Assembly: GCA_963851265.1 (NCBI GenBank)
Contig: CAWKNZ010000008.1
Location: forward strand, 96,001-160,000
Origin: an uncultured Gemmatimonadales bacterium
Lineage (GTDB): Bacteria; Gemmatimonadota; Gemmatimonadetes; Gemmatimonadales; Gemmatimonadaceae
Direction of reading: 5' to 3'
DNA: 64,000 bases
Shown one piece after another: positions 16,882 through 62,829 of this stretch. The notes under the pieces are model-generated. The model had not been told where the DNA came from. It saw only the letters and a list, made by a program, of their open reading frames with translations, and made no database searches. Position numbers and translations under genes: made by a program. Position 1 is the stretch's first letter. Each line of letters opens with the position of its first letter.

Positions 16882-16903
16882 CGCCGCGCCGTAGCGCCGC
16901 GCC

Positions 16904-33880: not shown

Positions 33881-34058
33881 GCATCGAGCGCGACTTGGGA
33901 GCGGAACAGGAGACCGGCCCGTTGGGGGCACGCCTAACAGATCCGCGTGACGCGGGCGCGGCGGCCCCGGCGGGCCGCGGGGCGCCGGCCCTGGCACTCT
34001 CGGCGCGATGCTCTACCCTTCCTGAAGTACGGCCACCTCCCCCGTTTTCCCCCGCCGC

Positions 34059-36785
<2,727 letters not shown>

Positions 36786-37221: not shown

Positions 37222-37335
37222 GGTCGAACCTCTCGGGGACGAGGGGTGGTGGACGCGGCGGCGGTCGCCGCCGCGGGGAACACGGAGCCCGGTGCGGCTC
37301 CCGTGGTAGGCACGGACGGTCAGGTCGTTAGGCGG

Positions 37336-38568: not shown

Positions 38569-38569
38569 G

Positions 38570-39811: not shown

Positions 39812-39859
39812 GGGGACGGGCCTCGGGTGGGCGGCTTGGGTGGTCGAAGCGGTCGGGCG

Positions 39860-42800: not shown

Positions 42801-43075
42801 GCGTGCGGGTGCGCGTGCGGATGCGCGTGCGCGTCGTCCACGGCGAAGAGCACGGCGCCGGGTCCGGCGCGGAGGAGGTGCGCGCGGGCGCCGACGGGCT
42901 CGTGCGCCCGCAGCTCGACGGCGAACACGTCGACGGTGCCCTCGACCACCTGCCAGGCCTGGCCACCGGCGAGGAGGAACGGGGTGCCCGCGCCGACCGG
43001 CTGCGGCTCCCCGAGCCGGGCGAAGACGTCGAGCGCCGGCGCCAGCGTGTCGGGGATCGTCTCCATCGTGTCCAT
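39860..43075 (-). CDS. NHLP bacteriocin export ABC transporter, permease/ATPase subunit
   Basis: QAAVWDRLLALP..FF, GPSGSGKST, LSGGQRQR, FFDEATSALDN; long N-terminal domain without a peptidase Cys. Confidence 0.92.
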   Translation of the reverse strand: MDTMETIPDTLAPALDVFARLGEPQPVGAGTPFLLAGGQAWQVVEGTVDVFAVELRAHEPVGARAHLLRAGPGAVLFAVDDAHAHPHAHPHADAPNTSAAAERDLAERDLAERDLAERGLLAVGASGTLLRRVPLGALRAHGETVDGARDVVAAVEGWAEALYAGLGEALARASGGAHGRHAAPRDCRAIGCTPDGAPARFDAGTSARPTAGVAWVRHLAGHSHLLGVDELAVNGVGFTPVSHRAWLEAREPGEVLLVEGLAINDPDALWAGVARLHALVLRGTAVAVGRGAAAAHERLARRAAADRRALQGACARLADTLDPRVGSADATTLAVTLRAAAGEHAVAGYEDALLAVCQRVGEAAGVTVRPYVRGDGIAPPRDPLAAIARASRLRTRQVVLRDAWWAHDHGPLLARVAAPAAAPEGAGDAGGSAPARHPLLDAPTPRPVALIPAARGRGYTLHDPFTGRGYPVGLAEGALLEPFAHTFYRPFPARALSITDVARFGLRGCGRDLALVTAVGAAGALLGLVPPMATGALFSTVIPGAQRPQLVQLAVVLLVCALATALFNVTRAVALLRVEGRMGAAVQAAVWDRLLALPMPFFRPYSAGDLAVRAMGIDGIRQVVSGVTVTALLGGLFSLVNFALMFSYSPRMAWWATLLIAVAVGIASVGSWLQLRQNRRVAEVQARVSGLVLQLLTGVTKLRVAGAEARAFTRWATRFGEQRRLQFRAERVGGGVSAIQSAFPVVANMVIFWAALGLLGSANEAGDASSPRLTTGDFLAFLSAYAACQGALLSMCTALLQTLATVPLYEQARPILATAPEVDEAKSDPGPLAGAIELRNLYFRYNPEGAPVLRDVSLRIEPGEFVAFVGPSGSGKSTILRLLLGFERAETGTVLYDGQELEQLDVQEVRRQIGVVLQNGQLMSGDIFTNIAGSSPASLDDAWEAARMAGFDADVKAMPMGMHTVVSEGGGTLSGGQRQRLMIARAVVHRPRLMFFDEATSALDNRTQAVVTESLDRLKATRIVVAHRLSTIVHADRIVVVERGRVVQQGRYDELMAQPGLFAELARRQIA
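42721..42775 (-). repeat. 15-bp in-frame tandem repeat (AERDL) in the ABC transporter gene
   Basis: About 3.6 copies of cgcgctcggcgaggt. Confidence 0.8.
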
Positions 43076-43077
43076 GG

Positions 43078-45408: not shown

Positions 45409-46667
45409 AGCCCGACCGCCTGCTTGATCATCGGGACCACCATCTCGATGGGCCGGCGCGTGGCCACGGCGACGTTGGCCGAAGCGAGCGTCCCGCTCGC
45501 GACCTTGACCGGCGGACCGCCCGAGGACGTCCAGCGGTACTGGCTCACCGTGCGCGGGTCGACCACGAGGTCGGCGCGCACCTCGTAAGGCGCGTCCTGG
45601 CCGGAGAGCGACTGCACGAGGCGGTCGTTCTTCAGCACGCGCATCATGCCGCGCGCCGTGGCCGGGAACTCCGAGACGTAGGTGACCCGCGCGAGCATGA
45701 AGCCGTACTCCTCCTGCTTCACGGTCGTCGGCGCGATCTGGATGGTCATGCCGGGCTTGATGCGCTTGCCGTGCATCGAAGGCACGTAGACCACGGCCTC
45801 CAGTCCCTTGACCGCGCGCCCTTCGAGGTCGACGGTCAGCACCGGCTCGCCGGCGCCGACCATCGCGCCGCGGTCGGCGAGCACCTCGAGCACACGCCCG
45901 CTCGCGGGCGCGACGACGCGCGACGCCTCGCCGAGCTGGCGTTCGAGTTCCGCGACGTGCGCCGCCTGCTCGTCGACGTGCGCCTGGCTCGCGCGCGCGT
46001 CGCCGGCCGCGCCGAAGCGCGTGTCGGCCCCGCGGGCGTCGATCGAGGCGAGCTGGCTCTTCGCGTCGGCGATCTTTTCGCGGGTCGCGTCGAACGACTG
46101 GCGCGTCCCGAGGAGGCTGGAGCGCGTGAGCAGCCCCTTCGCGACCAGCTGCTGCTCGGCCTCGAGCTTCTCGCCTAACGACGCGAGCGCGTGTTCGTCG
46201 GCCTCGATCCCCTGGGTGAGGGCCAGGCGCTGGCGGTCCTGGAACTCGCCCTGCAGCCGGACGTTCTCGACGCCGCGGCGCAGCTGCTGCGCGTGCTGGT
46301 CACGCAGGGTGGCGAGCGTGGCCTTGGCCTGGTGCAGCTGGTTGGCGAGGTCGGGCTGCTCGATCCGCGCGACGACCTGCCCCTCGTGCACCTCGTCTCC
46401 GACGGCCACGGCGACGTCGGCCACGCGCCCCGGCGTCGCGGGCACCACCTGCGCCACGCCGCCGCTCTTGACGAGCATGCCGAGCCCGGCGACGGTCTCG
46501 GGGATGCTACCGAGGCAGCCCCACGCGATCCCGGTGACGAGCAGCGCGCCTAACGCGGCGAGGGCCACCCACCCGCGGCCGTCCGTGACGGTCATGAGCT
46601 GGTCGAGCTGCTCGGGCGACGCGAGGCGGTCGAGCGAGACTTTGCGGAACACGGACGACTGGCTCAC
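45405..46667 (-). CDS. NHLP bacteriocin system secretion protein (HlyD-like membrane fusion protein)
   Basis: FRKVSLDRLASPEQLDQL, KQEEYGFM, YRWTSSGGP, RRPIEMVVP. Confidence 0.93.
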   Translation of the reverse strand: MSQSSVFRKVSLDRLASPEQLDQLMTVTDGRGWVALAALGALLVTGIAWGCLGSIPETVAGLGMLVKSGGVAQVVPATPGRVADVAVAVGDEVHEGQVVARIEQPDLANQLHQAKATLATLRDQHAQQLRRGVENVRLQGEFQDRQRLALTQGIEADEHALASLGEKLEAEQQLVAKGLLTRSSLLGTRQSFDATREKIADAKSQLASIDARGADTRFGAAGDARASQAHVDEQAAHVAELERQLGEASRVVAPASGRVLEVLADRGAMVGAGEPVLTVDLEGRAVKGLEAVVYVPSMHGKRIKPGMTIQIAPTTVKQEEYGFMLARVTYVSEFPATARGMMRVLKNDRLVQSLSGQDAPYEVRADLVVDPRTVSQYRWTSSGGPPVKVASGTLASANVAVATRRPIEMVVPMIKQAVGL

Positions 46668-48559
46668 GGGGCTCTCCGGGGGGCGGCGCGGGTGGACGGG
46701 GCAACCGCGGGTGGCGCTGGCGGCGGCGCTGCTGCTGGCGCTGCGGGCGGCGCAGCCGGTGCGGCATCGGGGTACGGGTCGCGGGCGAGTACGGCGGCGA
46801 GGCTGACCGCGGCCGTCGCGGCGGCGCTCTCGGGCCCGCCCTGTGCGCCGGGGTCGACGGCCATGCTCGCTGCGCCGAGGTCGCCGGCGACGTAGCGCAG
46901 CGTGCCGACCGCGCCCGCGTAGGTGCGGCGTGCGCCGATCTCGGCGAGTTGCGCGTTCACCAGCCCGTCCTCGGCGTAGATGACGTCGATCTGCGTGCTG
47001 ACGCCGAGGCGGAACTTCTGCTTCTCGTTCTCGACGACCTCGCGCGCGAGGCGGACGGCGTCGCCGGCCTCGGCGAGGGCGCGGCGGCCGCGCTCGACGC
47101 CCGCGGCGGCCACGCCCATCGCGCTCTCGACCTGGCGCGCGAGGTCGCGTTCGCCGATGCGCGCCTGCTCGAGCGCGGCCTCGGCCTCCTCGGCGCGCCC
47201 GCGCGCGGCGAGGCGACGCGCGGGCAGCTCGTACTGCAGCTGCACGACGGTGTTGGTGCCGGGCAGCGTGCGGCCGAGCGGCGAGACGAAGCCGTTGAGC
47301 CCGAAGCCCTGCGTGAGGCCCGCGTAGCTGGCGCCCACGGTGAGGTCGACGCGCGGGCGCAGGTCGTGGTTGGCCGCGGCGAGGGCCTGGGACGCGGCCT
47401 CGCGCCGCGCGGCGGCGGCGAGGATGTCGGGGCGGCGGCCGAGCGCCGCCGCCGACACGGTGCGGGCCCAGGCCGCCGCGCGGCGCTCGTCGGCGGCGGC
47501 GGCGCGGTCACCCGGCGCGTCCGGCGCCACGTCGGACTTCGCGTTAGGCACGACGTTAGGCGAGGCGTTGGGCGCCGCGTCGAGCCGTGCGGGCGGGAGC
47601 GACGCGATCTGCTCGGCGGGCAGCCCGAGTACGACGCCGAGGCGCTGCCGGGATTCGGCGACGGCCTGCTCGGCGGTGATGCGCTGCGCGCGCTTCCCGG
47701 CGAGGCTGCCGCGGAACTGCCGCAGGTCGGCCGCCGGGCGCGCGTCGGCGCGCACCAGCTCGGCCGTCTCGTCGACGAGCACGCGGGCGCGCTGCTCGGA
47801 CGAGCGATAGGCGGCGAGGCGCTCGCCCGCGGCGGCGTAGTCCCAGTAGGCCACGGCCGCGTCGTAGCTCGCCTGGACCGCGGCCTGGCGCAGGTCGGCG
47901 CGCGCGGCGTCGAAGCCGGCGACCGCGGAGCGGCGCGCGGCAGCGAGCGCCGCGCCCATGCGGTTGCGGGCGAGCGGCACCGTGAGGTTGAGGCCGGCGG
48001 TGGCGCGGTTGGCCGGCGCGCTCGGCAGGCCGGCGACGGTCGCCTGCTGCACGTCGAGGGTGGGCGCGATCGAGAGGCCGTTGCTGAACTGCCGCCCGAC
48101 GCTCACCTGGTAGTCGAGCACGCGCTGGCGCGTGTTGATCACGGGGTTGGCGGCGAGCGCATCCGCCGGGGCGATCGCGCCGAACTCCAAGTCGCTCTGG
48201 GTGGTGTTCGCGACCGTGGTGCGGACGACGGGGTCGAGCGGCGACTCGGCGACGGCGACCGCGCCGCGGCCGGCGCGTACCTGCTGGCGCGCGGCGCGCA
48301 GCGCGGGGCTGAGGTCGAGCGCGGCGCGCAGGGCGTCGGCGAGGGAAAAGAGGGGGGCGGGCGCGGCGGCCGCGGTGTCGGCCGAGGGGGCCGGGCGCAC
48401 GGCGGGCGCGCCGGCAGGCGGGGCGCCCACGGCGGCGCGGGGCGCCGCGGCGTGCGGCTGCGCGCCGGCCGCGACGGCGACGGCCGTGCTGGCGAGCAGC
48501 GCGCCGGTACCGAACACGCCGGCGCGGGCGAGGGCGAGCAGTCGGGGGGACGGGGGCAC
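46664..48559 (-). CDS. TolC family outer membrane efflux protein
   Basis: LSL.DAL..AL, AYWD, ENEKQKFRLGVSTQIDV..AE. AGGAG RBS before GTG 48559. Confidence 0.85.
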   Translation of the reverse strand: MPPSPRLLALARAGVFGTGALLASTAVAVAAGAQPHAAAPRAAVGAPPAGAPAVRPAPSADTAAAAPAPLFSLADALRAALDLSPALRAARQQVRAGRGAVAVAESPLDPVVRTTVANTTQSDLEFGAIAPADALAANPVINTRQRVLDYQVSVGRQFSNGLSIAPTLDVQQATVAGLPSAPANRATAGLNLTVPLARNRMGAALAAARRSAVAGFDAARADLRQAAVQASYDAAVAYWDYAAAGERLAAYRSSEQRARVLVDETAELVRADARPAADLRQFRGSLAGKRAQRITAEQAVAESRQRLGVVLGLPAEQIASLPPARLDAAPNASPNVVPNAKSDVAPDAPGDRAAAADERRAAAWARTVSAAALGRRPDILAAAARREAASQALAAANHDLRPRVDLTVGASYAGLTQGFGLNGFVSPLGRTLPGTNTVVQLQYELPARRLAARGRAEEAEAALEQARIGERDLARQVESAMGVAAAGVERGRRALAEAGDAVRLAREVVENEKQKFRLGVSTQIDVIYAEDGLVNAQLAEIGARRTYAGAVGTLRYVAGDLGAASMAVDPGAQGGPESAAATAAVSLAAVLARDPYPDAAPAAPPAAPAAAPPPAPPAVAPSTRAAPRRAP

Positions 48560-48593
48560 GGCGGGCTCCTGCGGCGCGGGCGGTGAGGACGCG

Positions 48594-48794
48594 TTAGGCC
48601 TGGTGGTGGTGGCCGGCGCGGAGCGCCTCGGTCCAGGTGCGGGCGAGGCCGCCGACGACGGCTTCGAGGTCGTCTTCCGAGAGCTCGTCGTCGGCGGATG
48701 CCGCGCGCGGGGTTGCCGGCGCGTGGGCGATCGGGGTGAAGGCGATCGGAGGGAGGGCGGCGGCGGGGCGCGCGGGGGTGGGCAGCAAAGACAT
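48594..48794 (-). CDS. Short double-glycine precursor-like peptide (core LARTWTEALRAGHHHQA)
   Basis: ELSEDDLEAVVGG motif; first gene behind a sigma54 promoter. Confidence 0.65.
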   Translation of the reverse strand: MSLLPTPARPAAALPPIAFTPIAHAPATPRAASADDELSEDDLEAVVGGLARTWTEALRAGHHHQA

Positions 48795-48874
48795 GGGTCG
48801 GGGCCGGGAAGGGCGTGACACCGGGTCCGGTCGCGTGGGGCGCCGGGTGGGGGCGGTCTGACGCGCTGTCGAAG

Positions 48875-49001
48875 GGCAACCGCCGTTCCGACCTTGTCAC
48901 GAACGTAAGCGACGGCGTCGCAACGACTTGCGTTCGAAGCCGGGGCCGCGTTCCGGTCCGAATGCGCCACCCGCCACTATCTCGTAGAGCGCGGGGTCTA
49001 C
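48875..49001 (-). promoter_or_regulatory. sigma54 promoter + IHF-like site + UAS of the export operon
   Basis: cGGAACGGCGGTTGCc (48890-48875); CAACGACTTG near 48920; GTAGAGCgcggGGTCTAC at 48984-49001. Confidence 0.75.
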
Positions 49002-49155: not shown

Positions 49156-49350
49156 TCAGGCGGTCGTGTCGCCGAGGACCGTGCCGATCGTGGGCAGCAC
49201 GGGATCAAGGATGATGATCGGAGCGATGATCGGGCCGCCGATCGGGCCGAAGTGGCCGACGGACGCGCCGCCGGCGACCGACTCAAGGGCCTCGTCGCTC
49301 AGGGTTTGCTCGTCCGACGGCTTGACGTTCTGCTCGCTGTTGCTGGACAT
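49156..49350 (-). CDS. Short double-glycine precursor (core ASVGHFGPIGGPIIAPIIILDPVLPTIGTVLGDTTA)
   Basis: TLSDEALESVAGG; GAGAGG RBS. Confidence 0.8.
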   Translation of the reverse strand: MSSNSEQNVKPSDEQTLSDEALESVAGGASVGHFGPIGGPIIAPIIILDPVLPTIGTVLGDTTA

Positions 49351-50140: not shown

Positions 50141-50335
50141 CTACAGTTGTGGAAGCGTCGGGACGATCCACGGCGGCAGGCCTCCCGGGCCGCTGGTACC
50201 CATTTCGCAGCCGCCGGCGACGTTTTCCAGGGCCTCGTCGCTCAACTCCTCAACGGGCGGTTCGGTCGTGTCAATCTGGGACGCGCGCTGCGTGTTGTCC
50301 TGGGCGACCTTCTGCTGCTTGGTGTCGTCCTGCAT
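50141..50335 (-). CDS. Short double-glycine precursor (core CEMGTSGPGGLPPWIVPTLPQL)
   Basis: ELSDEALENVAGG; GGAGA RBS. Confidence 0.82.
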   Translation of the reverse strand: MQDDTKQQKVAQDNTQRASQIDTTEPPVEELSDEALENVAGGCEMGTSGPGGLPPWIVPTLPQL

Positions 50336-50505: not shown

Positions 50506-53499
50506 CTAACTACAGCACGCACGAGCGGGCAGGTCGGCTTGCAGCGGCGACGGGACGGCGCTCGGGTCGGATACGCGGAGGAGCGTGTACGCAACACCGG
50601 CGACGCCCCGCAGCAGCCCGGGCGAGAGCGATTCCGCGAGTGCCGGGTACGCGTAGCTCCGGCGGCGCCTCGCGCCCGCGACGACGCGCCCCGCGAGCAC
50701 GCGGGCGTTGTGGACGAACTCGGGCCGTCCAAGCGCCGCGGCCGCGGCGAGGTTGACCTCGACTCGCGCGAAGGCACCGCAGCAGAGCGTCCACGGTGCC
50801 CGGCCGTCCATCGCGGCGTCCGACGCCGCGCCAGCCAACGCGGAGCGCCACAGCGCCTGCTCGTCGCCCGTGCCGGCCTCCGCGGCGAGCGCCGCCGCGC
50901 ACGCAAGGCCCAATCCGGGCGTGCCGCGACACCAACCACGGATCGTCGACGGACCACGCCCGCACTCGCGGCCGTCCGCCGCAGCGGTCAACGCTGCGCG
51001 CACCTCCGGCGACGCGAACCGTTCGTCACCGGCGCGCGTGCCGAGCCGGAGGAGTGCGGCCACCACGCCGGGGGGCCCGTGACCGAACCCGGGCTCGCCA
51101 ACCCTCCACTCGCACCGCACTAGGAGCCACTCGCCCCAGGCCAGGGCGAGATCAAGGGCGTCGGCGTCACCCGTAACGCCGTGTACGGCGAGGGCCCCGA
51201 GTACGCCGCCCGCCGCGCCGGCGAAAACGTCCGCCAGCACGCGGGGACGCGGCGGGCCCATTCGCACGAGCGCCGCGCGTGCCGCTTCGAGTAAACCGGC
51301 GTCGCCGAGGAAAGCCGCCGCACTCGAGAGCGCATACGCGATGCCGCCCCACCCCACCGCCAGCCCGGGTCCGGACGACACGGTACGGCGCGCCGGCTGC
51401 CGCGCGGAGTCGCACACCGGGCGCAGCGCGCGGTACGCCCACTCAGTCGCCTCGTCCGCATCGATTCCGTGTCCGCGCAGCACGTACGCGTGTGCGGCGA
51501 AAAACAACCCGATCCCTGCCCGTCCCGCCTCCAACCCGTCGCCGGCGGCAGCGATCCACCGCTGACCCCCGCCGACATCCTGCGCGTACCAGCGCGCGCC
51601 GCCCCCGGGCGACGTCGCAGCGACCGACCGGAGCAACGCGGCGAGTTGCCCCGCCTCGGCGAGCGCCTGGTCCGGCGTCAGCGGAGCGCCGTCGACCGGC
51701 GCTGCGGCGTCATGATCGCTGTCCCTCCTGCGTCGATGCCGGTCGGCGGCTAACGCGATCTTGATGTGATGAAGTTGACGGCGAAGCCGCGCGTCGCTCA
51801 TCTGCGCGACCCCGCGCCGGACGCTCGCGTACCCCGACATGCTGGCGTACCCCGCGACGAGTACTTCGCCCCCGGGCCCACACAAGTCCGTGCCGTCGGC
51901 AGGGACGGTGAAGATGGGCACGTCCGACCGCTGCATGGCATCGCGCTCCGCGTCCAACGTGGGCCACAGCCCCGGCCGTTCAGCGGCGCGGAGGTACGGG
52001 CCGCGGAGGACGTCGAGCTCCGCCAGACGCTTGGCCTCCCCGCCGAGGAAGTCGGGGTGCGTCGTGCGGCGCAGCAGCACCAGATACACCGACGTCGCCC
52101 GCAATAACACGCGTGACGCTCCGCCCGCGAACGCGGCGAGCGGGCCGGTGCCGGAGAGGAGTTCGGCCCGGCGCGCGCCCAGAACCTGATACGTCCGCCG
52201 AAACCCGCGCTGCACGGCCGCCGCAGCCGCCGTCGCGTCATACCCCCGGACCGCGGTTCGCGGCTCACGGGCTTGCGCTTCCGATTGCGGGTCCGTTGGA
52301 AGGCGCGTACGCGAGCCCCAGTGCATGGCGTCCGTGTTGACCTGCGTCCACCACGGCCCGTCCTGCCCGGGCGCGGCGGCGCGGGCACTCGTGTCGAAGT
52401 TAGGCAATAGGATTCCGCCTTCTAGGTAGCCGACGCCGTTGCCGGCCACCCTCGCTTCGGGCAGCAACCCGGTGTCGAGCACGCTCGGCTCGAGCCCGTC
52501 GTGGGCGTGTGCTCCCTCCGACGGAACCGGCCGGCAAAGCACCTCCAAGTCGATCATCACGGGATGTTCACCGGCCGCCACCACGTTCTCGGAGTGCAAA
52601 TCGCTGCCGCGCAGCACGTGCGCGAGGCAGAGGACCGCGCCCATGCGCTCGAAGTAGCGCGCGGACGCTGCCTCGTCGGCACACGGCGACGCAGCCGCGT
52701 GCTCGGCCCACCCGTGCGTGCCGCGGTCCAAGACTCGCAGCGCACGTGGACGCGGGGTGCCAGGCGGTAAAGCCTTGTCTAGCCAGGCTACGAGTTCGGC
52801 GTACGCGACGTCGAACACCAGCGAACGCGGCTTGTAAACGACCGGGCCCCCATGCGGGGGGTGGAGGATGGCGACTTGTCGCGCGTGGGCGTGTGGGTCG
52901 GAAAGACCCGCCTCGACGCGCAGGATGCGCCCGACCTTCCCGCGCCCCAGCGCCGCCGCAACAGCACACGCGTCCGCGGCGAACCGGACGAGCAGCTCCG
53001 CCGTCGCGTCGACCCAGTCGGCGACTAACGTCGCGACGAGGCGCGCGAGCACGGGGTGGGCAGCGAACAGGTCGCCGAGCCCACCCGCGAGCTGCGCACG
53101 AACGAACGCGGCGTACGCGCCAGGGGGCCGGTCCGGGTACCCGGAGTTGTAAACCCGGTAGAGCGCGCGCGTCGACAGCTCGGAGACGCGGGCCAGCAGT
53201 ACCCGCTCAACCCCGGCGTGCGCGGCGCCGGTGAAGCACGCGTACGCCCGCCGTCCGGATGCACGGCGCACGCGCCGCCGCGCCACAACGAGCAGGGGCG
53301 CCCAGACGTGCTCGAAGGGGACCGGCGCCCCCGGCGTGAACGCGCGGTCGCGCGGCAGCACTGTGGCGCCGGGCGCAGCACGCGTCGCAATCCGGTATGA
53401 CGCGTGCCGCAGCTCCGTTAGGAGGGCCGCTCCGAGCCCGTCTTCCCTTGCGCCGTTCCCGCACCGCACGGACTCATTTCTGCGCGTCGTACCAGTCAT
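50506..53499 (-). CDS. lanM: Class II lanthipeptide synthetase LanM (copy 1, WC...CCG cyclase)
   Basis: SDPH, VVYKPR, DLHSENV, IDLE, SVLDTGLLP, DVPIF; cyclase GFGHG, WCRG, LCCG. Exact start is uncertain. Confidence 0.9.
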   Translation of the reverse strand: MTGTTRRNESVRCGNGAREDGLGAALLTELRHASYRIATRAAPGATVLPRDRAFTPGAPVPFEHVWAPLLVVARRRVRRASGRRAYACFTGAAHAGVERVLLARVSELSTRALYRVYNSGYPDRPPGAYAAFVRAQLAGGLGDLFAAHPVLARLVATLVADWVDATAELLVRFAADACAVAAALGRGKVGRILRVEAGLSDPHAHARQVAILHPPHGGPVVYKPRSLVFDVAYAELVAWLDKALPPGTPRPRALRVLDRGTHGWAEHAAASPCADEAASARYFERMGAVLCLAHVLRGSDLHSENVVAAGEHPVMIDLEVLCRPVPSEGAHAHDGLEPSVLDTGLLPEARVAGNGVGYLEGGILLPNFDTSARAAAPGQDGPWWTQVNTDAMHWGSRTRLPTDPQSEAQAREPRTAVRGYDATAAAAAVQRGFRRTYQVLGARRAELLSGTGPLAAFAGGASRVLLRATSVYLVLLRRTTHPDFLGGEAKRLAELDVLRGPYLRAAERPGLWPTLDAERDAMQRSDVPIFTVPADGTDLCGPGGEVLVAGYASMSGYASVRRGVAQMSDARLRRQLHHIKIALAADRHRRRRDSDHDAAAPVDGAPLTPDQALAEAGQLAALLRSVAATSPGGGARWYAQDVGGGQRWIAAAGDGLEAGRAGIGLFFAAHAYVLRGHGIDADEATEWAYRALRPVCDSARQPARRTVSSGPGLAVGWGGIAYALSSAAAFLGDAGLLEAARAALVRMGPPRPRVLADVFAGAAGGVLGALAVHGVTGDADALDLALAWGEWLLVRCEWRVGEPGFGHGPPGVVAALLRLGTRAGDERFASPEVRAALTAAADGRECGRGPSTIRGWCRGTPGLGLACAAALAAEAGTGDEQALWRSALAGAASDAAMDGRAPWTLCCGAFARVEVNLAAAAALGRPEFVHNARVLAGRVVAGARRRRSYAYPALAESLSPGLLRGVAGVAYTLLRVSDPSAVPSPLQADLPARACCS

Positions 53500-53650
53500 T
53501 CATCTTCTGTATCACCCAATCGATCACGTCACCGCCGGCAACGGACTCGAGTTCGTCGTCGTTGAGCACCCCATCGGCGTCCTCACGTGCCGGGGCGGTC
53601 GCGGTATCAGGGGTAGGGGGGGTGCTCGGGGTCTGCTCGGAATCCGCCAT
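53474..53650 (-). CDS. Short double-glycine precursor (core DVIDWVIQKMNDWYDAQK)
   Basis: LNDDELESVAGG; GGAGG RBS before ATG 53650. Confidence 0.8.
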   Translation of the reverse strand: MADSEQTPSTPPTPDTATAPAREDADGVLNDDELESVAGGDVIDWVIQKMNDWYDAQK

Positions 53651-54135: not shown

Positions 54136-55285
54136 TCACTCGTACGCGTACACCACCTTCCCGAAGCGCTCGCGGTCGTTGAATGTGCGATTGAGGAACG
54201 GCGCGACGTCGTCACCGGTGAATACGGAATCTGTCACCACGAGCAGCGCGCCCGCGGCATAGTCGCTCAATGCCCGCTCAAGTCCGTCGCTGAGGCCGAT
54301 GCAGTTGCCGACGATCGACAAGTTCTTCATGATCGCGGTCTGGAGGAGACTGGTCAGCCCGAACGGATTCCACACCGGCAGTGCGCGCCGCGTGAGGACT
54401 CTGGCCCGCGAAGCCGCACGTGATGTACGTCCCGAACGGCTGCCAGCAGCTCCAACGCGTCTTCCGCGACATGCAGGTCGAAGAACGGATCCAGCACAGC
54501 TTGGAAGCTGGAGGCCCGCCGCGGCCACGGCCGCCGCAAGCGCGCCGGCAGTCCCGGGCTCACGGGGTGCCCCAGCAGCCGCACGCGGCACGACGAGGAC
54601 CTCGGACACTCCGAGCGCCCGAATCTCGTCGGCGCGATCTTCCGACGTCGTCGACGCGTAAATCTCCGCGCTGCTGGACGCGGAGTGCCCCGATGAGCGC
54701 GAGCGACGTGTTGGAACTTCCCGCCGTCACCAGCACCCGCGTCCCCGGGCCGATGCCGGCGCGCCGAACCATGCTGTATGCGGTCTGTGCGTTCAGCGCG
54801 AACCCGGCGGCGACTGCGTCCGGCATGCACGCCGGGATCGCGGCGAGCTTCTGTTCCGGGATCACCTGCCACTCGCGCGACGCACGGTTACTGACGACCC
54901 CTTCCCGCACGCCGCCAGGCGGCGTGGCCGCACCCGTGTAGTGCTGGTCGGGGACCACGCGGTCGCCCGGGCGGAGCCCCGTCACCTCCCGCCCGACCGC
55001 GGCGACGACGCCGGTGAATTCTGAGCATATCGGAACGAAGCGGCGCGGCGGCACCGACGCCATCAGGCGGACGAAGGCGCGGTCACGGTAGTTGCACGAT
55101 GTGGCCGTGACTCGTACGAGCACCCGGCGCGCATCGTCCGCCCCCTGCGGGTCGAACCGCGGCGGCGACGTGTGAACGACGCCGCACCCGACGGTCGCGC
55201 CGTCTACGGTGACGGCCCGAGGGGCGCCGAGCCCAGCGGTGCTCAGCCGGCGCGCGCGGCCCCCAAATACGACGACGTTTCGCAT
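54136..55285 (-). pseudogene. Zn-dependent MDR dehydrogenase, LanJ(A)/LtnJ-like, with about 4 frameshifts (real or sequencing errors)
   Basis: SCNYRD, SEFTGVV..VG..V..L.PGDRV, QTAYSMVRR, VLVTAGSSNTS; then in shifting frames AEIYASTTS, VLDPFFDLH, FGTYITCG, KNLSIVGNCIG, RFGKVVY. Confidence 0.7.
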
Positions 55286-55322
55286 CAGCGTGAGGGGCAG
55301 GGTAGGTGGGGACCCCAGCGTG

Positions 55323-58300
55323 TTAGGCCCACAGGAGCACATTCGGGACGACGTCCGGCGCCGCCAGCCGCAGCAACTGGTAGCCGATCCCGGCGCTCCC
55401 CTGTGCAAGTCCTACCGCGATCGCCCCCCATCCGGTGTTGTACGCGCCGTCGACGCTGGCGCGCGCCATCACGTGGTCGGCGGCACCGCGGGCCTCGGCG
55501 ACGAGTTCGGGGCGGCGGAGGTGCCGCCCCGCACTCAGCAGAAGCTCGGTACGCCCCATGACGCCGCAGCACAGCGTGTCCGGGCCGGCGAGGAGCCGGT
55601 CCCGCGTGCGGCGCACGGCGGCATGCACCTCGGGTGAGACGTCCGGCCACGCGTCGGCTGCATCGGTCGCGGGACGGGTCACGGCCAGCCGGGCCAGACC
55701 GATGCCGCCCGCGCCGCGAGCCCACGCGGCCCGCGCGTCGTCGTCCCCCGAGAGCCCGCAGAGTTCTGGGCCCAGCACGGTGCGCTCGTACGCGAAGGCG
55801 TCCGCCGACGCCGACGCGAAGCGGGCCTCGCCGGTCGCTGTGGCCAGGCGGTGCAGCGCGTACGCGATCCCCGCATGCCCGTGCGCCATGCCAGTCTCGG
55901 GCTGGCCGCGCGGGCCGGGCCAGTACCCCGCCGCCGTCGCGCCGGCGCCTTCCCGCCGCCGCAGCAGGTGGTCGCCCAGCGCCACGGCGCGCTCCAGCGC
56001 CGCGCCGCCCGGCGCGTCGGCGAGCGCGAGCAGGCCGAGGATCGCGCCAGCCGACCCGGCCATCAGGTCACCACTGTCCCGTTCCTCGACGCACGCGACG
56101 TCGATCAGCGCGGCAACATCGGCGGCGGCGTGCATTGTCGCGGTGTCGTTAACGAGGGTACCCAGGCGGGCGAGGGCGTACGCCGTGGAGCCGAGGCCGG
56201 TGCCGGCGCCTACGTCCGTCCAGCGCCGCACGCGCACGGAGCGTCGCAGGTCGGGGAGGTGGGCGTGGAGCGGACGCAGTGACGCGAGCGCCTGGTCCGC
56301 GAACCGCCCGTCGCCTGTGACCCTGGCCAGCACCGCCAGGAAGAGGGCGAAGCCCACGTATCCGTCGAGCAGGTTCGCTGGCGCCGCGCCGAGCACGTAG
56401 CGTCGCGACGCCGCGTGGTACATGGGCGCGACCCACGCCCCCACCGCACACCGCCGCGCGCGCGACCGGGCGATCACGCGCTCCGCGATGGCGACGCCTG
56501 CGGCGAGCGCGCGGTCCGTGAAACCGTCGCCGGCCGCGGCGGCCGTGTCCGAGGGAATCGGCACCCCGGCGACCTTCGCGCGGCGGGCCCGCCGCTCCGC
56601 CGGCGGAGCGGCGGGCCCGCGCACGTCGTCCACGTCGACGGCCGCGAACGAGGCGCGGATGAGCTCGACCTGCGCCTCCTCGTCCTCGGGGCTGAGCGCG
56701 CGCATGCGCCGTACGGCCATGTCGAATGCCGAGGTCCGGAAGCACCCCTCGATCACGTCTCCGGTCGGAAGCACCAAGGCGGTGCTGTCCGCGTCGGCCG
56801 TGAACAGGGGAATGTCGAGCCGCTCGAGTGCTTCTTGCTCGGCGCGCAGGACGGGCCAGATCGTCGGCCGATCGGCGCGCGTCAGGAACGTGCGGCACAG
56901 CACGTCCAGCTCCACGCCGCGGCGCACGCCGTCGCGCAACAGGTTGGGGTGGTTGCAGCGCTCGAGCAGCGCCGCGTACAGGCTGGTGTTGCGCAGGATG
57001 AAGCGGACGCGCTGCCGCCGCATGCACGCGATCGGGCCACCCGGCGCCAACACCTCGTCGCGGCCGGCGAGGAGGGCGGCGTAGGTCCGCCGGAACCCCA
57101 CGACGAGCGCCTCCACGTGCTCACGCGCGGTAACCGCGCGGCCGTTCACCATCGGGAGGTTCGCGGGGTGCCGTTGGGCCGGCGCGCGCACTCGAACGGG
57201 CCGCATGGCCGCCGTATTCGCGGCAACCCACGTGCTGACCACCGAGTCGTCGGTGGGCTGCGCGCCCGCGCGAAACGCGCCCACCTCAACCGCCCCCCCC
57301 GAGTCGTCGACCTTGAGTTGTGGCAGCATGTGCAAGGCGAGCACGGAATCGAACAGGAAACGGCGGGCGGTTCCGTCGGCCATCGCCTGGTCGGGCGGCT
57401 CGTCGGTCGGCGCGAAGTCAGGGCTGAGCAGCGTCTCCAGATCGATGAGCACCGGCTGGTCGCCGGCAGCGATCAAGTTTTCGAAGTGGAAGTCCGATCC
57501 GTTGAGCGCGTACGCGATGCACAACAGCGCCCCGCACCGCTCGTAGAACCGGGCGACGTCGCCCTCGCGCGCGCACGGGGCGTGGGCGGCGAACTCCAGC
57601 CACCCGTGTGTCGGGCGCGCCACCACGCGCAACGGCGCCAGCGACAGCGCGGGCGCGCGGGCGTTGAGCCACCGCGCGAGGTCGCCGAAGCACTCCTCCA
57701 GCCCGACCGGGCGCGGCTTGTAGACCACCCGGTGGCCGCCGGCAAAGTGTAGGATCATCACGCCGCGGCCGCCCTCGTGCGGATCGGAGAGCGAGCACGA
57801 GAGGTCGACGACGGGGCCGAGCGGCTTCCCACCCGCCAGCACGTCGCGGATGCGCTCCGCGTCGTCGGCGAGGCGCGCGATCAGCTCCGCTGCGGCTTCA
57901 ACCCACAGGTCGACGATCGTCGCACACAGCCGAGCGGCCACGGGATACTCGACGAAGAACGCCCGCATGCCGCCGGCGCGCATGCCCGCGACGAAATCCG
58001 CGTACGCGTCGCCCGCCGTCGGCCCCATGCCCAGTGCCGCGTGCCGGCAGACCCGGTCGACCGAGAACGACACGAACAGCGCGCGCGCGCACGTCTGGCT
58101 GAGCCGCTGGAGGGCGGCTCCTTCCAGCGCGGCGTGCGCCTGCGGGGTCAGGAGGTCGTGCGCCGGCCCGACTCGCGCCCGTACGCGCTCGCGAGCGACC
58201 CGCATGAGCGGCGCGAATACGTCGCCGAACGCCACGGCAGCCGCGCCGCCGGCGGACGGCACCTCGACCGCTTCGGCGGCGGGCGCCGCTTGTAGCCGCG

Positions 58301-58610
58301 GCCCGTACGCGGCTGTGAGTGTGGCCGACCACCCGAGGTCGGCCGGCGTCGGGTCGGTGTCCCCCAGCATCCGCGCGACCACCGCGGGATCGAGCCCGTC
58401 CCACGTGAGGCGCCGATGAAGGCTGGGCCAGTCACCGCGGCTGAGGGTGGCGCACCACCCCTGCAGCTCGGGCGGTTGGACGCCCGCGTCGTGGCCCGCG
58501 TCGTGGCCCGCGCTACGCCGCCGCACACCATCGAGCCGAGACTGAAGTGTGGCGGCGCGCGTGAGCGAGAGCAGGACGGCGCCGTCGCGGGCGGTGTGAG
58601 CAAGCGTCAT
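55323..58610 (-). CDS. lanM: Class II lanthipeptide synthetase LanM (copy 2, cyclase motif WC changed to WA)
   Basis: SDPHEGG, VVYKPR, DFHFENL, IDLETL, DIPLF; cyclase GMAHG, WARG, LCCG. Confidence 0.92.
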   Translation of the reverse strand: MTLAHTARDGAVLLSLTRAATLQSRLDGVRRRSAGHDAGHDAGVQPPELQGWCATLSRGDWPSLHRRLTWDGLDPAVVARMLGDTDPTPADLGWSATLTAAYGPRLQAAPAAEAVEVPSAGGAAAVAFGDVFAPLMRVARERVRARVGPAHDLLTPQAHAALEGAALQRLSQTCARALFVSFSVDRVCRHAALGMGPTAGDAYADFVAGMRAGGMRAFFVEYPVAARLCATIVDLWVEAAAELIARLADDAERIRDVLAGGKPLGPVVDLSCSLSDPHEGGRGVMILHFAGGHRVVYKPRPVGLEECFGDLARWLNARAPALSLAPLRVVARPTHGWLEFAAHAPCAREGDVARFYERCGALLCIAYALNGSDFHFENLIAAGDQPVLIDLETLLSPDFAPTDEPPDQAMADGTARRFLFDSVLALHMLPQLKVDDSGGAVEVGAFRAGAQPTDDSVVSTWVAANTAAMRPVRVRAPAQRHPANLPMVNGRAVTAREHVEALVVGFRRTYAALLAGRDEVLAPGGPIACMRRQRVRFILRNTSLYAALLERCNHPNLLRDGVRRGVELDVLCRTFLTRADRPTIWPVLRAEQEALERLDIPLFTADADSTALVLPTGDVIEGCFRTSAFDMAVRRMRALSPEDEEAQVELIRASFAAVDVDDVRGPAAPPAERRARRAKVAGVPIPSDTAAAAGDGFTDRALAAGVAIAERVIARSRARRCAVGAWVAPMYHAASRRYVLGAAPANLLDGYVGFALFLAVLARVTGDGRFADQALASLRPLHAHLPDLRRSVRVRRWTDVGAGTGLGSTAYALARLGTLVNDTATMHAAADVAALIDVACVEERDSGDLMAGSAGAILGLLALADAPGGAALERAVALGDHLLRRREGAGATAAGYWPGPRGQPETGMAHGHAGIAYALHRLATATGEARFASASADAFAYERTVLGPELCGLSGDDDARAAWARGAGGIGLARLAVTRPATDAADAWPDVSPEVHAAVRRTRDRLLAGPDTLCCGVMGRTELLLSAGRHLRRPELVAEARGAADHVMARASVDGAYNTGWGAIAVGLAQGSAGIGYQLLRLAAPDVVPNVLLWA

Positions 58611-58745
58611 GGTGCGGCGTCGGGCGTGGCGAGGGCGGTGACCGAGGACGTGGTGAACTCCTGCCGGCAGGCCGGCCCGAGGCGCGGGCAGCGGTGGTCG
58701 GCTGCCGCGCGCCCCGAACGTCGGCGTGGCGCCGGCGGGAGTGGG

Positions 58746-59126
58746 TCAGTGCGTGGCCAGGTAGACGTCGGCGCCGGCGAGCGCGCCGGCAAGCGCCCAG
58801 AGGGCGATGGCAGCTAGCGGCGGCGACCCGCCGGCGACGGCTTCCAACTCCTCGGCCGACAGCTCGACGTTCGGGTCGACGAAGTCCGGCAGCACGAGCG
58901 TCGCGTCGCCCTGGTTCTCGACGAACTTCACGTTCCACGTGGCGTGCAGCTCCTCGGCTGGGCGGCCGACGAACTCGGCGAGCGCGGCGCGCGGGTCGGC
59001 GATGAGCTTGGTGCGGAAGCCGCGGTCCGTGGCCGACCGGGAGAGCATCGACCGGATGGCATCTTCGGCCTGTTTGGCGAAGGCAGGATTCGTGGCGAAC
59101 AGTTCGGCAGTCTGGCGCGTGTCCAT
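58746..59126 (-). CDS. NHLP-leader precursor (core SPPLAAIALWALAGALAGADVYLATH)
   Basis: SRSATDRGFRTKLIADP, KFVEN..DATLVLP, ELSAEELEAVAGG. Confidence 0.9.
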   Translation of the reverse strand: MDTRQTAELFATNPAFAKQAEDAIRSMLSRSATDRGFRTKLIADPRAALAEFVGRPAEELHATWNVKFVENQGDATLVLPDFVDPNVELSAEELEAVAGGSPPLAAIALWALAGALAGADVYLATH

Positions 59127-59164
59127 GACGGGGCCCTCTGGGGTGAAGGTGTTGGGTGGGAGCG

Positions 59165-59533
59165 CTACTTGGTGGCGGCCTGCGCCGCCCATGCGCCGAC
59201 GGCCATGCTACCGACGAAGATCATGAGCCCGATGGCGATCGGATCCGAGCCGCCGGAGACCGCCTCGAGCTCCGACTCCTGCAGCTCGGCGTCGGGGTCG
59301 ACGAACGGGGGAAGCACGAGGGTGGCGTCGGCCGTGTTCTCGACGAAGCGCACGTCCAGGCGCTCGGGGAACGCGGCGCCGAGCGCCTCGTGGAGGGCCG
59401 CACGGGGCTCGTCGAGGAGCTTGCGGCGGAAGTCGGCGTCGGTGGCGGAGCGCGTCAGCACGGAGCGGATTTGGGCGATCCCCTGCTCCGCGAGCTCGGG
59501 GTGCTGCTGGGCGATGGCGACGGTCGTGTTCAT
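59165..59533 (-). CDS. NHLP-leader precursor (core SDPIAIGLMIFVGSMAVGAWAAQAATK)
   Basis: TRSATDADFRRKLLDEP, RFVENTADATLVLP, ELQESELEAVSGG. Confidence 0.9.
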   Translation of the reverse strand: MNTTVAIAQQHPELAEQGIAQIRSVLTRSATDADFRRKLLDEPRAALHEALGAAFPERLDVRFVENTADATLVLPPFVDPDAELQESELEAVSGGSDPIAIGLMIFVGSMAVGAWAAQAATK

Positions 59534-59633
59534 GAGAGTGGGTGGCGGTGGGTCAGGGTGGTGGGACGCGCGGGCTGGCGTCGGCGGACGTTAGGCGTTC
59601 GGGGGCGCCCCGCGGCGGGGGCACCGGCCGCCG

Positions 59634-60001
59634 CTACTTCATGTCCGAGATCATCTTGATCGCGGAGATGACCCCGAGGATGCTCGCGACGATCGAGCCG
59701 ATGCACGGGTCCGTTCCGCCGGCGATGGCCTCGAGCTCCGACTCTTGGAGCTCGGCCTCGGGATCGATGTAGTCCGGGAGCACGATCGTGGCGTCCGCCG
59801 TGTTCTCGACGAAGCGCAGGTCGAGGTCGCCGATGTCGCCGCCGGTCGCCTCCTGGAGCGTCTCGCGGGGCTGCGCGATCAGGCGCTGGCGGAACGCGTG
59901 GTCGGTGGCCGACCGGCTGAGCACGGTCCGGATCCTGTCGTGGTACTCGCGGACCTCCTCGGGCGGTCGGCGGCGATGCGCTCGATCGTTTCGACGTTCA
60001 T
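59634..60001 (-). CDS. NHLP-leader precursor (core TDPCIGSIVASILGVISAIKMISDMK); 1-nt frameshift near 59962
   Basis: AGGAG RBS + ATG 60001 MNVETIERIAADRP, then after a shift in a C-run EEVREYHDRIRTVLSRSATD...ELQESELEAIAGG. Confidence 0.85.
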
Positions 60002-60081
60002 GGTGCGGCTCCTGTTGGGAGAAGGGTGATGGTAACGACATGCAACAAAATCGGGGTGCTGTCCGATCGGTCCTCTCGGAG

Positions 60082-60208
60082 GGCAACGCGCGTACCTCGC
60101 GCGGCGGTCACGTAAGCCGTTGGTGTACAACGACTCGCACGTACGCGCCGTCGCCGCGACCGGCGCCGCGGCGCGCCCGCGCTCTACGGCGTAGGGCCAC
60201 GGCTCCAC
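60082..60208 (-). promoter_or_regulatory. sigma54 promoter + IHF-like sites + UAS of the NHLP-lanM operon
   Basis: aGGTACGCGCGTTGCc (60097-60082); TAAGCCGTTG...CAACGACTCG at 60113-60137; GCTCTACggcGTAGGGCcacgGCTCCAC at 60181-60208. Confidence 0.8.
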
Positions 60209-61093: not shown

Positions 61094-62392
61094 TCACCGC
61101 TCGGTCGACGGCGCGCCCACCCGCGCACTGGCCGCGCCCGGTTTGAGGTCGTGGTGCCGCAGAAAGTCCATAAACTTCAAATAGTCCCCTTCCGCGATCG
61201 CAAACAGCCCGAGCACCCGCTTGTAACTCCCCCGCGTCGCCACGAGCCCCCGCTCCACCACCAGCCGCACCTCGGCGCGACTCAGCTCGCGCTCCATGTA
61301 CGGCCCGTGCACCAGCTCCCAGAACGTCCCCTCCCCCGCCAGCATCCGCGCGTACGGGTCCGCCCCCGCGGCACCGACGGCCCGCGTGCCGCCCGGCGGC
61401 GTCATCACCGGCACCCCCCGCAGCTCCTCGCTGCACGCCGCCCCCTCCAGCGCCTCGCCGAAGTCCCGGGCCTCGATGGTCGCCCCCTCGCACACGTAGT
61501 AACCCGTGTCGACGAGGCTCCGGAGCTCGCGCACGTTCCCGGGCCACGCGTACCGGCCTAACACCACGAGCGCGTGCGCCGAGAACCGCTTGCGCGACCC
61601 CTCCGCCTTCACCACCCGCTCCAGGTAGTGCTCCAGCACCAGCCGCCAGTCGTCGCCGCGCTCCCGGAGCGACGGCACGCGCACGTGCAGGTGCCGCAGC
61701 CGGTAGTAGAGGTCCGCGCGGAACCTCCCGCTCTCGACCATCGGCCGCAGGTCGCGGCTCGTCGCGGCGACCACCCGCACGTTGATCCGCTTGCTCTGCG
61801 TCGTCCCCACCGACAGGATCTCGCCCTCGCCCAACACGCGCAGCAGCATCGCCTGCGCCGTGACCGAGAGCTCGCCGACCTCGTCGAGGAACACCACCCC
61901 ACCGTCGGCCTCCTCGAACACGCCGCGGTGGTCACCGACGGCGCCCGTGAACGAGCCCTTGCGGTGCCCGAACAGCTCGCTCGCCAGCAGCTGGCCGTCG
62001 TGGTACTGCGCGCAGTTCACGGCGAGGAACGGCTTGCGGCTGCGGCGACTCAGCAGGTAGACCGCCCGGGCGAACAGCTCCTTGCCCGTGCCCGTCTCGC
62101 CCGTCACCAGCACCGGCCCGTCCGCCTCCGCGAAGCGCGCCGCGCGCTCCAGCGCCTGCGTGAGCGTCTCGTGCGACCCCACCACCGACACCTCGCGCGC
62201 CTCACCCCACCGTTCGCGCGACAGCTCGGCGATGCGCCGGCTGACGAACGACGCGGCGGGGGCGTCGGCCGCGCCGCGATCCGCCAACGTGTGCCCCAGT
62301 GCTCCACCGGCCGCCGGACTGTACGCGGCTCCTCCGGCCGTCCCGCCGAGCCCGCGCCGCGTGACGACCGACTGCTCCACCGCACTCATCAT
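61094..62392 (-). CDS. sigma54-dependent enhancer-binding protein with no N-terminal receiver or sensor domain
   Basis: GETGTGKE, SELFGHRKGSFTGA, FLDEVGEL, RFRADLYYRL, WPGNVREL. Confidence 0.93.
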   Translation of the reverse strand: MMSAVEQSVVTRRGLGGTAGGAAYSPAAGGALGHTLADRGAADAPAASFVSRRIAELSRERWGEAREVSVVGSHETLTQALERAARFAEADGPVLVTGETGTGKELFARAVYLLSRRSRKPFLAVNCAQYHDGQLLASELFGHRKGSFTGAVGDHRGVFEEADGGVVFLDEVGELSVTAQAMLLRVLGEGEILSVGTTQSKRINVRVVAATSRDLRPMVESGRFRADLYYRLRHLHVRVPSLRERGDDWRLVLEHYLERVVKAEGSRKRFSAHALVVLGRYAWPGNVRELRSLVDTGYYVCEGATIEARDFGEALEGAACSEELRGVPVMTPPGGTRAVGAAGADPYARMLAGEGTFWELVHGPYMERELSRAEVRLVVERGLVATRGSYKRVLGLFAIAEGDYLKFMDFLRHHDLKPGAASARVGAPSTER

Positions 62393-62523
62393 GTGTCGCT
62401 CCGGATGCCCGCCCGTACGCCAGTGGTGCCGGCGAGCGGGGCCGCGCCGGCGCGTGAGCGGCGGGAGGCCCGCCCTCACGCCCCGACGGTATGGTCGGAC
62501 GCGCGGCCCGCGGACCTCTCCGG

Positions 62524-62653
62524 GACGAGCGGAGCGAACCGCGTGACGGACGGGGTCTGGCGCGTGACCAACGGGCGCGCGGCCCGCGGCGGGCGGTGTG
62601 CCGCCGCCCGAGCCCGGCTGCCGTCCGCTCGTCCGGCCCGGCCTCCGCTCGTC
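62524..62653. promoter_or_regulatory. LytTR/AlgR-like direct-repeat boxes in a divergent intergenic region
   Basis: Minus strand: CCGCTCGTC, CCGTCCGTC, CCGTTGGTC at 62524/62545/62566 (21-bp period). Plus strand: CCGCTCGTC at 62625 and 62645. Confidence 0.6.
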
Positions 62654-62829
62654 ACGCCGCGGGGCGGGTTGGCACATGTGGGACGCGACACCGGCGCCGG
62701 GCGCACCTATCGTCTCGCCCGCCGGACGTCAGGCTACCGGCGCCGGAGCGGTCCCACGTCGCACGGCACCCCCCGAGACTCGCCCCCGCTCGACCCCCCT
62801 CCGACGACCGCCCCGGCGGCAGGTGTCAC

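Follow-up and report, generated by a model that had tools for sequence, protein, structure and literature searches.

A candidate LanM/LanJA-type gene cluster with NHLP-leader precursors and an interrupted lanJ in an uncultured Gemmatimonadaceae bacterium

Among the described systems closest to the locus considered here, LtnJ converts dehydroalanine (Dha) to D-alanine (D-Ala) in lacticin 3147 (PMC5808125, PMC7268733, PMC11519912), and NpnJA carries out this reduction in vitro (PMC5808125, PMC11519912). For the cluster of Nostoc punctiforme that encodes a Cys-free prepeptide, linear peptides containing D-amino acids have been proposed (PMC5808125), and Haft et al. (2010) described NHLP precursors beside LanM genes and expected the Cys-free ones to be left in the dehydrated state if there are no new tailoring steps (PMC2887384). 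We analyzed a 64,000-nt stretch of DNA from an uncultured Gemmatimonadales bacterium of the family Gemmatimonadaceae (assembly GCA_963851265.1, contig CAWKNZ010000008.1, positions 96,001 to 160,000; hereafter the window, numbered from its first letter), whose minus strand carries three NHLP-type precursor genes, a class II lanthipeptide synthetase gene (LanM2) and, directly after it, a gene for a dehydrogenase of the medium-chain dehydrogenase/reductase (MDR) type (lanJ). A preliminary description had proposed that a cyclase-deficient LanM and a LanJ-like dehydrogenase form a module here that installs D-Ala in hydrophobic cores. We read the region as a cluster for ribosomally made peptides with post-translational modifications (RiPPs) or bacteriocins with NHLP leaders, of the LanM-plus-LanJA type, that would make Dha and D-Ala in hydrophobic peptides, and we put the probability of this reading at about 60%.

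About 50 open reading frames (ORFs) of the window were scanned against Pfam, and NCBIfam equivalog cut-offs were used for the TIGR models. For the dehydrogenase, both collections gave generic MDR matches only (Pfam ADH_N, E = 3.3e-10 on the window lanJ fragment), and the best MDR match in the PDB had E = 3.4e-9, whereas LtnJ of pMRC01 shared 35% identity with its first 201 aa (pairwise E = 1e-32). A database search returned an intact protein of 380 aa, designated P0001, that is identical to the window lanJ product over the first 203 residues. We placed P0001 in a tree of 97 rows, obtained by a quick LG+G4 search, together with LtnJ, 80 LanJ-like genes from species-representative genomes, chosen by similarity, and an outgroup drawn only from the 17 other MDR paralogs in this genome, of which 15 were used (one locus had no matching ORF and one short fragment was omitted). 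The branch between the 82 LanJ-type rows, P0001 and LtnJ included, and the 15 own-genome MDRs had a Shimodaira-Hasegawa-like approximate likelihood ratio (SH-aLRT) support of 100, and the rows closest to the window dehydrogenase came from Longimicrobium and from Gemmatimonadaceae metagenome-assembled genomes (MAGs). By its sequence the dehydrogenase is thus a member of the LtnJ (LanJA) clade and not a housekeeping MDR, in line with what had been supposed. The predicted model of P0001 showed a confident MDR fold (GroES-like plus Rossmann; predicted local distance difference test score 92.9) with TM scores of 0.7–0.8 to MDR structures, its nearest structures being alcohol, quinone and enoyl reductases; the top structure matches listed for this model included none of a LanJA. 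Asn65 and Ser88 occupy what we take to be the classical catalytic-zinc positions of MDR enzymes (alignments to 3uog and 2eih), which makes the zinc label first given to the dehydrogenase provisional, and the conserved Cys residues of the LanJ family are at 64, 288 and 326. The activity predicted for LanJ from these relationships is an NAD(P)H-dependent reduction of Dha to D-Ala.

LanM2 matched DUF4135 (PF13575, E = 1.5e-112) in its N-terminal kinase/lyase part and LANC_like (PF05147, E = 1e-36) in its C-terminal part, and scored 703.5 bits against NCBIfam TIGR03897 (cut-off 304) over model positions 2–932 of 932. Nine residues of CylM have been tied to phosphorylation and phosphate elimination (D252, H254, K274, D347, H349, N352, D364, R506 and T512; PMC4550811), and all nine were conserved in LanM2 in a phmmer alignment to 5dzt, the corresponding motifs being SDPHE at 275, VYKPR at 296, SDFHFEN at 372, LIDLE at 388 and RFILRNTS at 536. 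The dehydratase motifs are therefore intact, as described before. For the zinc site we considered three ligands, which are C875, C911 and H912 in CylM and Cys-Cys-Cys in CCG-type enzymes. The first of these is lost in LanM2: the motif W963-A964-R965-G966, which lies one base away from the position first given for it, faces WCHG of LicM2 (phmmer alignment to 6st5), and LanM1, the second synthetase of the window, reads WCRG. Ligands 2 and 3 are present in LCCG, so that the triad is incomplete by one ligand of three and not by all. A sequencing error as the origin of WARG was rejected, since the Ala codon GCT sits two changes from either Cys codon, so that a single base error cannot account for it, and the loss is common to relatives.

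To place LanM2 among the LanMs linked to LanJ-like genes, we fetched 160 LanJ-like loci (labeled L followed by a number), 80 from genomes and 80 from metagenomes; the metagenome scan found no relative with P0001 alone and gave the 80 metagenome loci when run with alignment A1. A LanM-like ORF was present in 70 of the 160 loci, and in 32 cases the LanJ-like homologue lay 4–600 nt from a LanM. LanMs with coverage of the LanC domain numbered 46 (43 distinct), of which 16 had the full triad and 30 lacked at least one ligand (none left in 13, one in 12 and two in 5). The seven rows nearest to LanM2, five of them distinct (L150, the lanJ-proximal LanM of L007, L105, L005 = L109, and L104 = L103), all replaced ligand 1 by Ser, Gly or Ala and kept a Cys as ligand 2, with a variable ligand 3; ligand 1 is accordingly lost, and the C1014 position and the His are kept, in all eight rows of the clade when the window is included. 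Because every nearest relative shares it, the loss of the first ligand is a trait of the clade. Searched with LanM2 as query, 39 of 40 relatives had no LanM2-like gene, and one genome of the same genus had a distant match (32%). On this sequence evidence LanM2 is likely to be deficient in cyclization, although its LanC-like domain is not decaying, since two ligands and the His are kept and the domain is conserved as well as the dehydratase domain.

The cores of the three precursors upstream of LanM2 are hydrophobic and nearly free of Cys, as had been noted: core A starts with Thr1 in an N-terminal TDPC, has its single Cys at position 4 and four spaced Ser (at 7, 11, 17 and 23), and cores B and C have no Cys. 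Core B and precursor C also scored above the cut-off of TIGR03949 (lactobin A/cerein 7B; 22.3 and 28.1 bits, cut-off 21.5). A leader profile derived from the window found 175 precursor ORFs in the LanJ-like loci, and a heuristic cleavage rule (Gly-Gly after acidic residues), which skipped 60 of them, left 102 unique cores. No Cys occurred in 58 of these, one in 29 and at least two in 15; the median grand average of hydropathy (GRAVY) was 0.65, and Ser plus Thr made up 20% of the residues. In single-Cys cores the Cys often stood near the N terminus, within the first seven residues in 19 of 29 and frequently as [ST][ST]xxC, a pattern that TDPC fits. Position 1 was Ser or Thr in 30 of the 102 unique cores, as it is in all three cores of the window. 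An exposed N-terminal dehydro residue gives a keto group; if residue 1 is dehydrated, general lanthipeptide chemistry suggests that its reduction to D-Ala would avoid this.

The chemistry, substrates and export route that we infer for these genes would run as follows. LanM2 would bind the three NHLP precursors, and its kinase/lyase domain would convert Ser and Thr of the cores to Dha and dehydrobutyrine (Dhb). Few or no thioether rings would be formed, because the LanC-like domain is without its first zinc ligand and most of the cognate cores are Cys-free. The LtnJ-family reductase would then turn Dha into D-Ala using NAD(P)H, the C39 ABC exporter would cleave after Gly-Gly, and the peptides would leave by way of this exporter with the second ABC subunit, the HlyD-type protein and the TolC-like channel. 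Expression is probably sigma-54 dependent.

The lanJ gene is interrupted in this assembly. Relative to P0001 its frame passes from 0 to 1, 2, 0 and 1, with four +1 changes near 54679, 54507, 54440 and 54350 (about 340 nt), and an extra codon is present near 54462–54464; from ATG to stop the gene measures 1150 nt where 1143 would be expected, a surplus of 4 × 1 + 3. Near 54291–54281 the A-T-D of P0001 is encoded one base out of frame and the frame in use reads S-D-G, which displaces Asp332, a residue that 36 family members share without exception; the pattern resembles an insertion compensated by a later deletion (+1/−1). Compared with P0001 we found 0 differences in the first 203 residues and about 22 in the last 176, mostly conservative and in variable columns. 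In a search of the genome the locus appeared as two pieces, one with an internal TGA, and no second lanJ was found. None of about 49 other scanned ORFs of the window showed a broken frame (36 of these matched a family, and many of the matches span the full model, such as TssF at 4–608 of 608 and both LanMs), and the damage is for this reason local. We think it probable that the frame changes are a local consensus error where two strain haplotypes meet, because they are insertions only, the mosaic boundary is sharp and conserved residues are spared; that lanJ is a true pseudogene we hold at somewhat under even odds, and in that case the strain would stop at dehydrated peptides. The proposed D-Ala-installing module is upheld in that a LanJA-clade gene stands beside LanM2, but conversion of Ser to D-Ala cannot be assumed for the genome as sequenced because lanJ is interrupted four times, and as a practical caution, the assembled sequence does not give a readable gene for this key reductase.

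As a separate observation, LanM, LanJ, HlyD and C39-ABC are split into several frames in the closest syntenic relative, a Gemmatimonadaceae MAG (L010, 5828–11118 and 14819–18540). These split genes resemble an error-prone long-read assembly, and such breaks occur in public MAGs of the group.

Several observations weigh against a LanM2/LanJ route to D-Ala peptides in this organism. As sequenced, lanJ cannot yield a full-length protein, and an intact protein with the window's own C-terminal lanJ allele was not found in a set of 5.8 billion proteins, the best match being P0001 at 87%. LanM2 retains C1014, C1015 and His910 (the "AHG" motif, catalytic His), and identity to LanM2 within the clade was 41–49% in the LanC-like domain vs 42–45% in the dehydratase domain, a conservation that speaks against the domain being simply "dead" and would allow it a role, structural or other. 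Some cyclization in core A is possible because Thr1 and Cys4 are both present, and cores B and C could carry little D-Ala because they hold just 2 and 1 Ser. The core statistics leave out the precursors that the cleavage rule skipped, and about half of the well-flanked LanJ-like loci show no LanM (40 of the 83 loci flanked by 4 kb or more on each side have one). Literature searches found no product of any Cys-free LanM/LanJA cluster.

Four other explanations were weighed against these data. Within about 400 nt of the sole lanJ locus of the genome stand four frame changes, one added codon and an invariant Asp out of place, and no intact copy of its C-terminal allele was found; this would suit a genuine and recent pseudogene, with the module ending at Dha- and Dhb-bearing peptides or the whole NHLP/LanM2 arm being lost, and the G+C and third-position G+C (GC3) of the cluster are below those of the flanks, as in acquired DNA. 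Natural decay in bacteria favors deletions, however, and all four changes are insertions; moreover, the conserved columns of the LanJ family are free of substitutions, the product of the 5′ 609 nt matches that of an intact gene exactly, and LanM2 and all three precursors are intact. As an account of the region we therefore consider such a loss rather unlikely. Still less probable, in our judgment, is that LanM2 is a working cyclase that uses its two remaining Cys and His910, closes a Thr1-Cys4 ring in core A and makes lanthipeptides with D-Ala like lacticin 3147. The retention of C1014 and the His in 8/8 clade rows, a LanC-like identity no lower than that of the dehydratase domain and the TDPC-like early Cys of many single-Cys cores would agree with this idea, but the first ligand is gone in the same 8/8 rows, the N-terminal Cys motif also occurs in L020 and L025, whose LanM retains one ligand at the most, and in L026 and L029, whose LanM retains none, and two of three local cores, like most of the clade, are Cys-free. 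Zinc-ligand mutants of lacticin 481 synthetase, moreover, reportedly dehydrate and fail to cyclize.

We see very little likelihood that the hydrophobic cores are essentially unmodified class IIb-like bacteriocins, with LanM2 and LanJ acting on other substrates or on none: the TIGR03949 scores and the few Ser and Thr of cores B and C speak for it, but LanM2 directly follows the NHLP precursors, five other loci (L005, L007, L009, L010 and L104) show the same NHLP-LanM-LanJ order, and Ser or Thr so often begins the core. That the dehydrogenase is a housekeeping quinone or alcohol MDR that stands beside LanM2 by chance, as its generic family matches might suggest, has next to no chance of being right, given its separation from the own-genome paralogs, its identity to LtnJ and the many homologues close to a LanM; the tree rejects this identity.

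Beyond the window, we tentatively picture, while thinking it doubtful as a whole, a widespread Gram-negative family of double-glycine bacteriocins with LanMs that lack ligand 1 and whose LanC-like domain stays under selection for a non-cyclase job. Its products would be linear or single-ring peptides resembling transmembrane helices, in which residue 1 and other, spaced positions would be D-Ala; sigma-54 promoters would drive their expression, and a TolC-type channel would carry them out of the cell. The domain may, for example, keep the dehydrated, greasy core in place for reduction by LanJA, or choose which Dha is reduced. Loss of ligands from a LanC-like domain that itself stays conserved raises the question of the role of this domain after thioether chemistry. 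If the chemistry holds, such clusters would supply enzymes for putting D-Ala into ribosomal peptides, and little-studied phyla such as Gemmatimonadota would yield peptides that are hydrophobic and resist proteases.

Table 1. Features of the NHLP/LanM/LanJ region, in window coordinates.
Feature	Position	Strand	Remarks
Sigma-54-dependent activator	61094..62677	-	Kept beside the cluster in L007, L009 and L010
Sigma-54-like -24/-12 element (GG-N10-GC)	60083..60097	-	Upstream of precursor A; one-base extension is AGGTACGCGCGTTGCC
NHLP-type precursor A	59634..60086	-	Leader end ...ELEAIAGG, core TDPCIGSIVASILGVISAIKMISDMK; TIGR03793 43.2 bits, below cut-off 50.9; true start uncertain, coding-like signal from about 59990
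NHLP precursor B	59165..59533	-	Core SDPIAIGLMIFVGSMAVGAWAAQAATK, 0 Cys; TIGR03793 55.5 bits, above cut-off 50.9
NHLP-type precursor C	58746..59192	-	Core SPPLAAIALWALAGALAGADVYLATH, 0 Cys; TIGR03793 39.5 bits, below cut-off; probable start at internal ATG near 59126
LanM2, class II lanthipeptide synthetase	55323..58610	-	1095 aa; dehydratase residues intact, first zinc ligand replaced
W963-A964-R965-G966, site of expected first zinc-ligand Cys	55713..55724	-	Codons tgg gct cgc ggc
L1013-C1014-C1015-G1016, ligand positions 2 and 3 retained	55563..55574	-	C1014/C1015 codons 55571-55566
lanJ-like MDR dehydrogenase (LanJA clade)	54136..55285	-	ATG at 55285, stop 54136-54138; 37 nt after LanM2 stop
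Short double-glycine peptide upstream of LanM1	53474..53650	-	Leader ...DDELESVAGG, core DVIDWVIQKMNDWYDAQK, no Ser/Thr/Cys
LanM1, second class II synthetase	50506..53499	-	Full ligand set WCRG, LCCG; TIGR03897 match 2-932 of 932
Short-leader Gly-Gly peptide	50141..50335	-	Core CEMGTSGPGGLPPWIVPTLPQL
Short-leader Gly-Gly peptide	49156..49350	-	Core ASVGHFGPIGGPIIAPIIILDPVLPTIGTVLGDTTA
TolC/OEP-type outer membrane channel	46664..48970	-	True start probably further downstream
HlyD-type NHLP bacteriocin secretion protein	45405..46667	-	TIGR03794 355 bits, cut-off 156
C39 peptidase ABC exporter	43078..45408	-	TIGR03796 1082.8 bits, cut-off 853.3
Second NHLP export ABC subunit	39863..43318	-	TIGR03797 912 bits, cut-off 709
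Periplasmic binding protein	38573..39859	-	Syntenic with cluster in relatives
DUF7005	37339..38592	-	Syntenic with cluster in relatives
Fourth NHLP precursor (D)	36877..37335	-	Core AGWIPGQGDSQWVDDNPAAKW, not hydrophobic; TIGR03793 52.0 bits, above cut-off 50.9

The order of the whole region on the minus strand, preceded by the sigma-54 activator and a LytTR response regulator, is three NHLP-type precursors, LanM2, the MDR dehydrogenase, a short Gly-Gly peptide, LanM1 and two short-leader Gly-Gly peptides, followed by the TolC-like channel, HlyD, the C39-ABC exporter, the second ABC subunit, the periplasmic binding protein, DUF7005 and the fourth NHLP precursor (Table 1). Homologs of the sigma-54 activator, DUF7005, the binding protein, both ABC subunits, HlyD and the channel recurred in L007, L009, L010, L104, L080 and L105 at 42–74% identity, and the trio of fourth NHLP precursor, DUF7005 and binding protein accompanied the LanM/LanJ cluster in L007, L009, L080 and L105. 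The cluster architecture is conserved and syntenic in Gemmatimonadota MAGs. With regard to regulation, the window and L010 (near 12470) have in common the 16-mer AGGTACGCGCGTTGCC, which extends the sigma-54-like element upstream of precursor A by one base, and sigma-54-like elements also lie upstream of precursor genes in L104 (near 1421) and L007 (near 4854). The motif was not enriched across the window (32 matches vs a shuffle mean of 51); for the precursor A site only its position and its recurrence in L010 are suggestive.

The three short-leader peptides, which flank LanM1, have a common leader motif, ...L(S/N)D(E/D)(A/E)LE(S/N)VAGG. One of their cores has Cys and Ser/Thr, one has Ser/Thr and no Cys, and DVIDWVIQKMNDWYDAQK has none of these residues; the last peptide could be an unmodified bacteriocin or a signaling peptide for the nearby LytTR regulator. 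Similar short-leader peptides with 2–3 Cys are encoded in L007 and L005, and a three-Cys short-leader peptide stands before the second LanM of L007, which has a full ligand set. Because this arrangement parallels LanM1 here, the island seems to hold two arms, one of NHLP cores with LanM2 and LanJ and the other of short-leader peptides with the intact LanM1. A candidate ORF for one more Gly-Gly peptide was seen at 48597–48896 (minus strand), where ...DDLEAVVGG is followed by LARTWTEALRAGHHHQA inside the 5′ extension of the OEP open frame.

The G+C content across the window was 72–78%, with its minimum (71–73%) in the 50–62 kb stretch. GC3 was 0.84–0.90 in the LanM/LanJ genes vs typically 0.94–0.98 in most other scored genes of the window, and the low value is consistent with acquired DNA. 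Elsewhere the window carries type VI secretion genes (1–14400, plus strand: ImpE, VasJ/ImpA, a TssE-like gp25, TssF, TssG, a ClpV-type ATPase, VgrG and a PAAR protein), the domain matches of which were all full-length, three Ser/Thr protein kinases (14304–16904, 16907–18838 and 34026–36782), and two open frames of 1142 codons with Sortilin/BNR repeats (22222–25647 and 26949–30374, minus strand) with an amidohydrolase between them.

Turning to described systems, the preliminary description had expected proteusin-like products made without a radical SAM epimerase. The D-residues of proteusins come from such an epimerase and alternate with L-residues, whereas the window cores offer at most 1–4 non-alternating Ser as potential D-Ala sites (one or two in two of the three cores), and this likeness does not hold. 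No Radical_SAM match occurred among the roughly 50 window ORFs scanned, the rest of the genome not having been searched for this family. What the locus does share with polytheonamide-type proteusins is the NHLP leader and the hydrophobic core, and proteusin products carry D-residues of the kind predicted here (PMC5808125). Class IIb bacteriocins resemble cores B and C in having a Gly-Gly site followed by a small-xxx-small hydrophobic peptide, but they are unmodified and have short leaders, whereas the leaders here are NHLP domains of about 90 aa encoded beside LanM and LanJ. Bicereucin, which is made by BsjM and the flavin reductase BsjJB, is said to be a LanM-made product with D-amino acids, one of its peptides being ringless; it differs in its Bacillus host and in having a LanJB flavoenzyme instead of an MDR.

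The lacticin 3147 operon (pMRC01) likewise encodes two LanMs (LtnM1 and LtnM2) and ends with a LanJA reductase gene, but LtnM1 and LtnM2 have full ligand sets and act on short-leader, Cys-rich substrates with true lanthionine rings, in a Gram-positive host without outer-membrane export. The Npn system of N. punctiforme PCC 73102 shares with the window a LanM-type dehydratase, a LanJA reductase and Cys-free precursors, those of Npn being described as Ser/Thr-rich. The window differs from it in phylum, in its NHLP leaders (the precursor of the Nostoc locus L082 has a Nif11-type leader), in having a further, intact LanM accompanied by short-leader peptides of its own, in the sigma-54, DUF7005 and TolC-type export components, in the interrupted lanJ, and in a LanM2 that retains two of three zinc ligands, whereas the LanMs beside the LanJ-like genes of the Nostoc loci L073 and L082 retain 0/3. 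A LanM/LanJ route is partly supported here, but it is not new, having been proposed for N. punctiforme with NpnJA (PMC5808125). Because that proposal already covers LanM and LanJA on Cys-free precursors, the module is best regarded as a published idea in a new lineage, and what this locus adds is the Gemmatimonadota lineage and the conserved architecture of the cluster.

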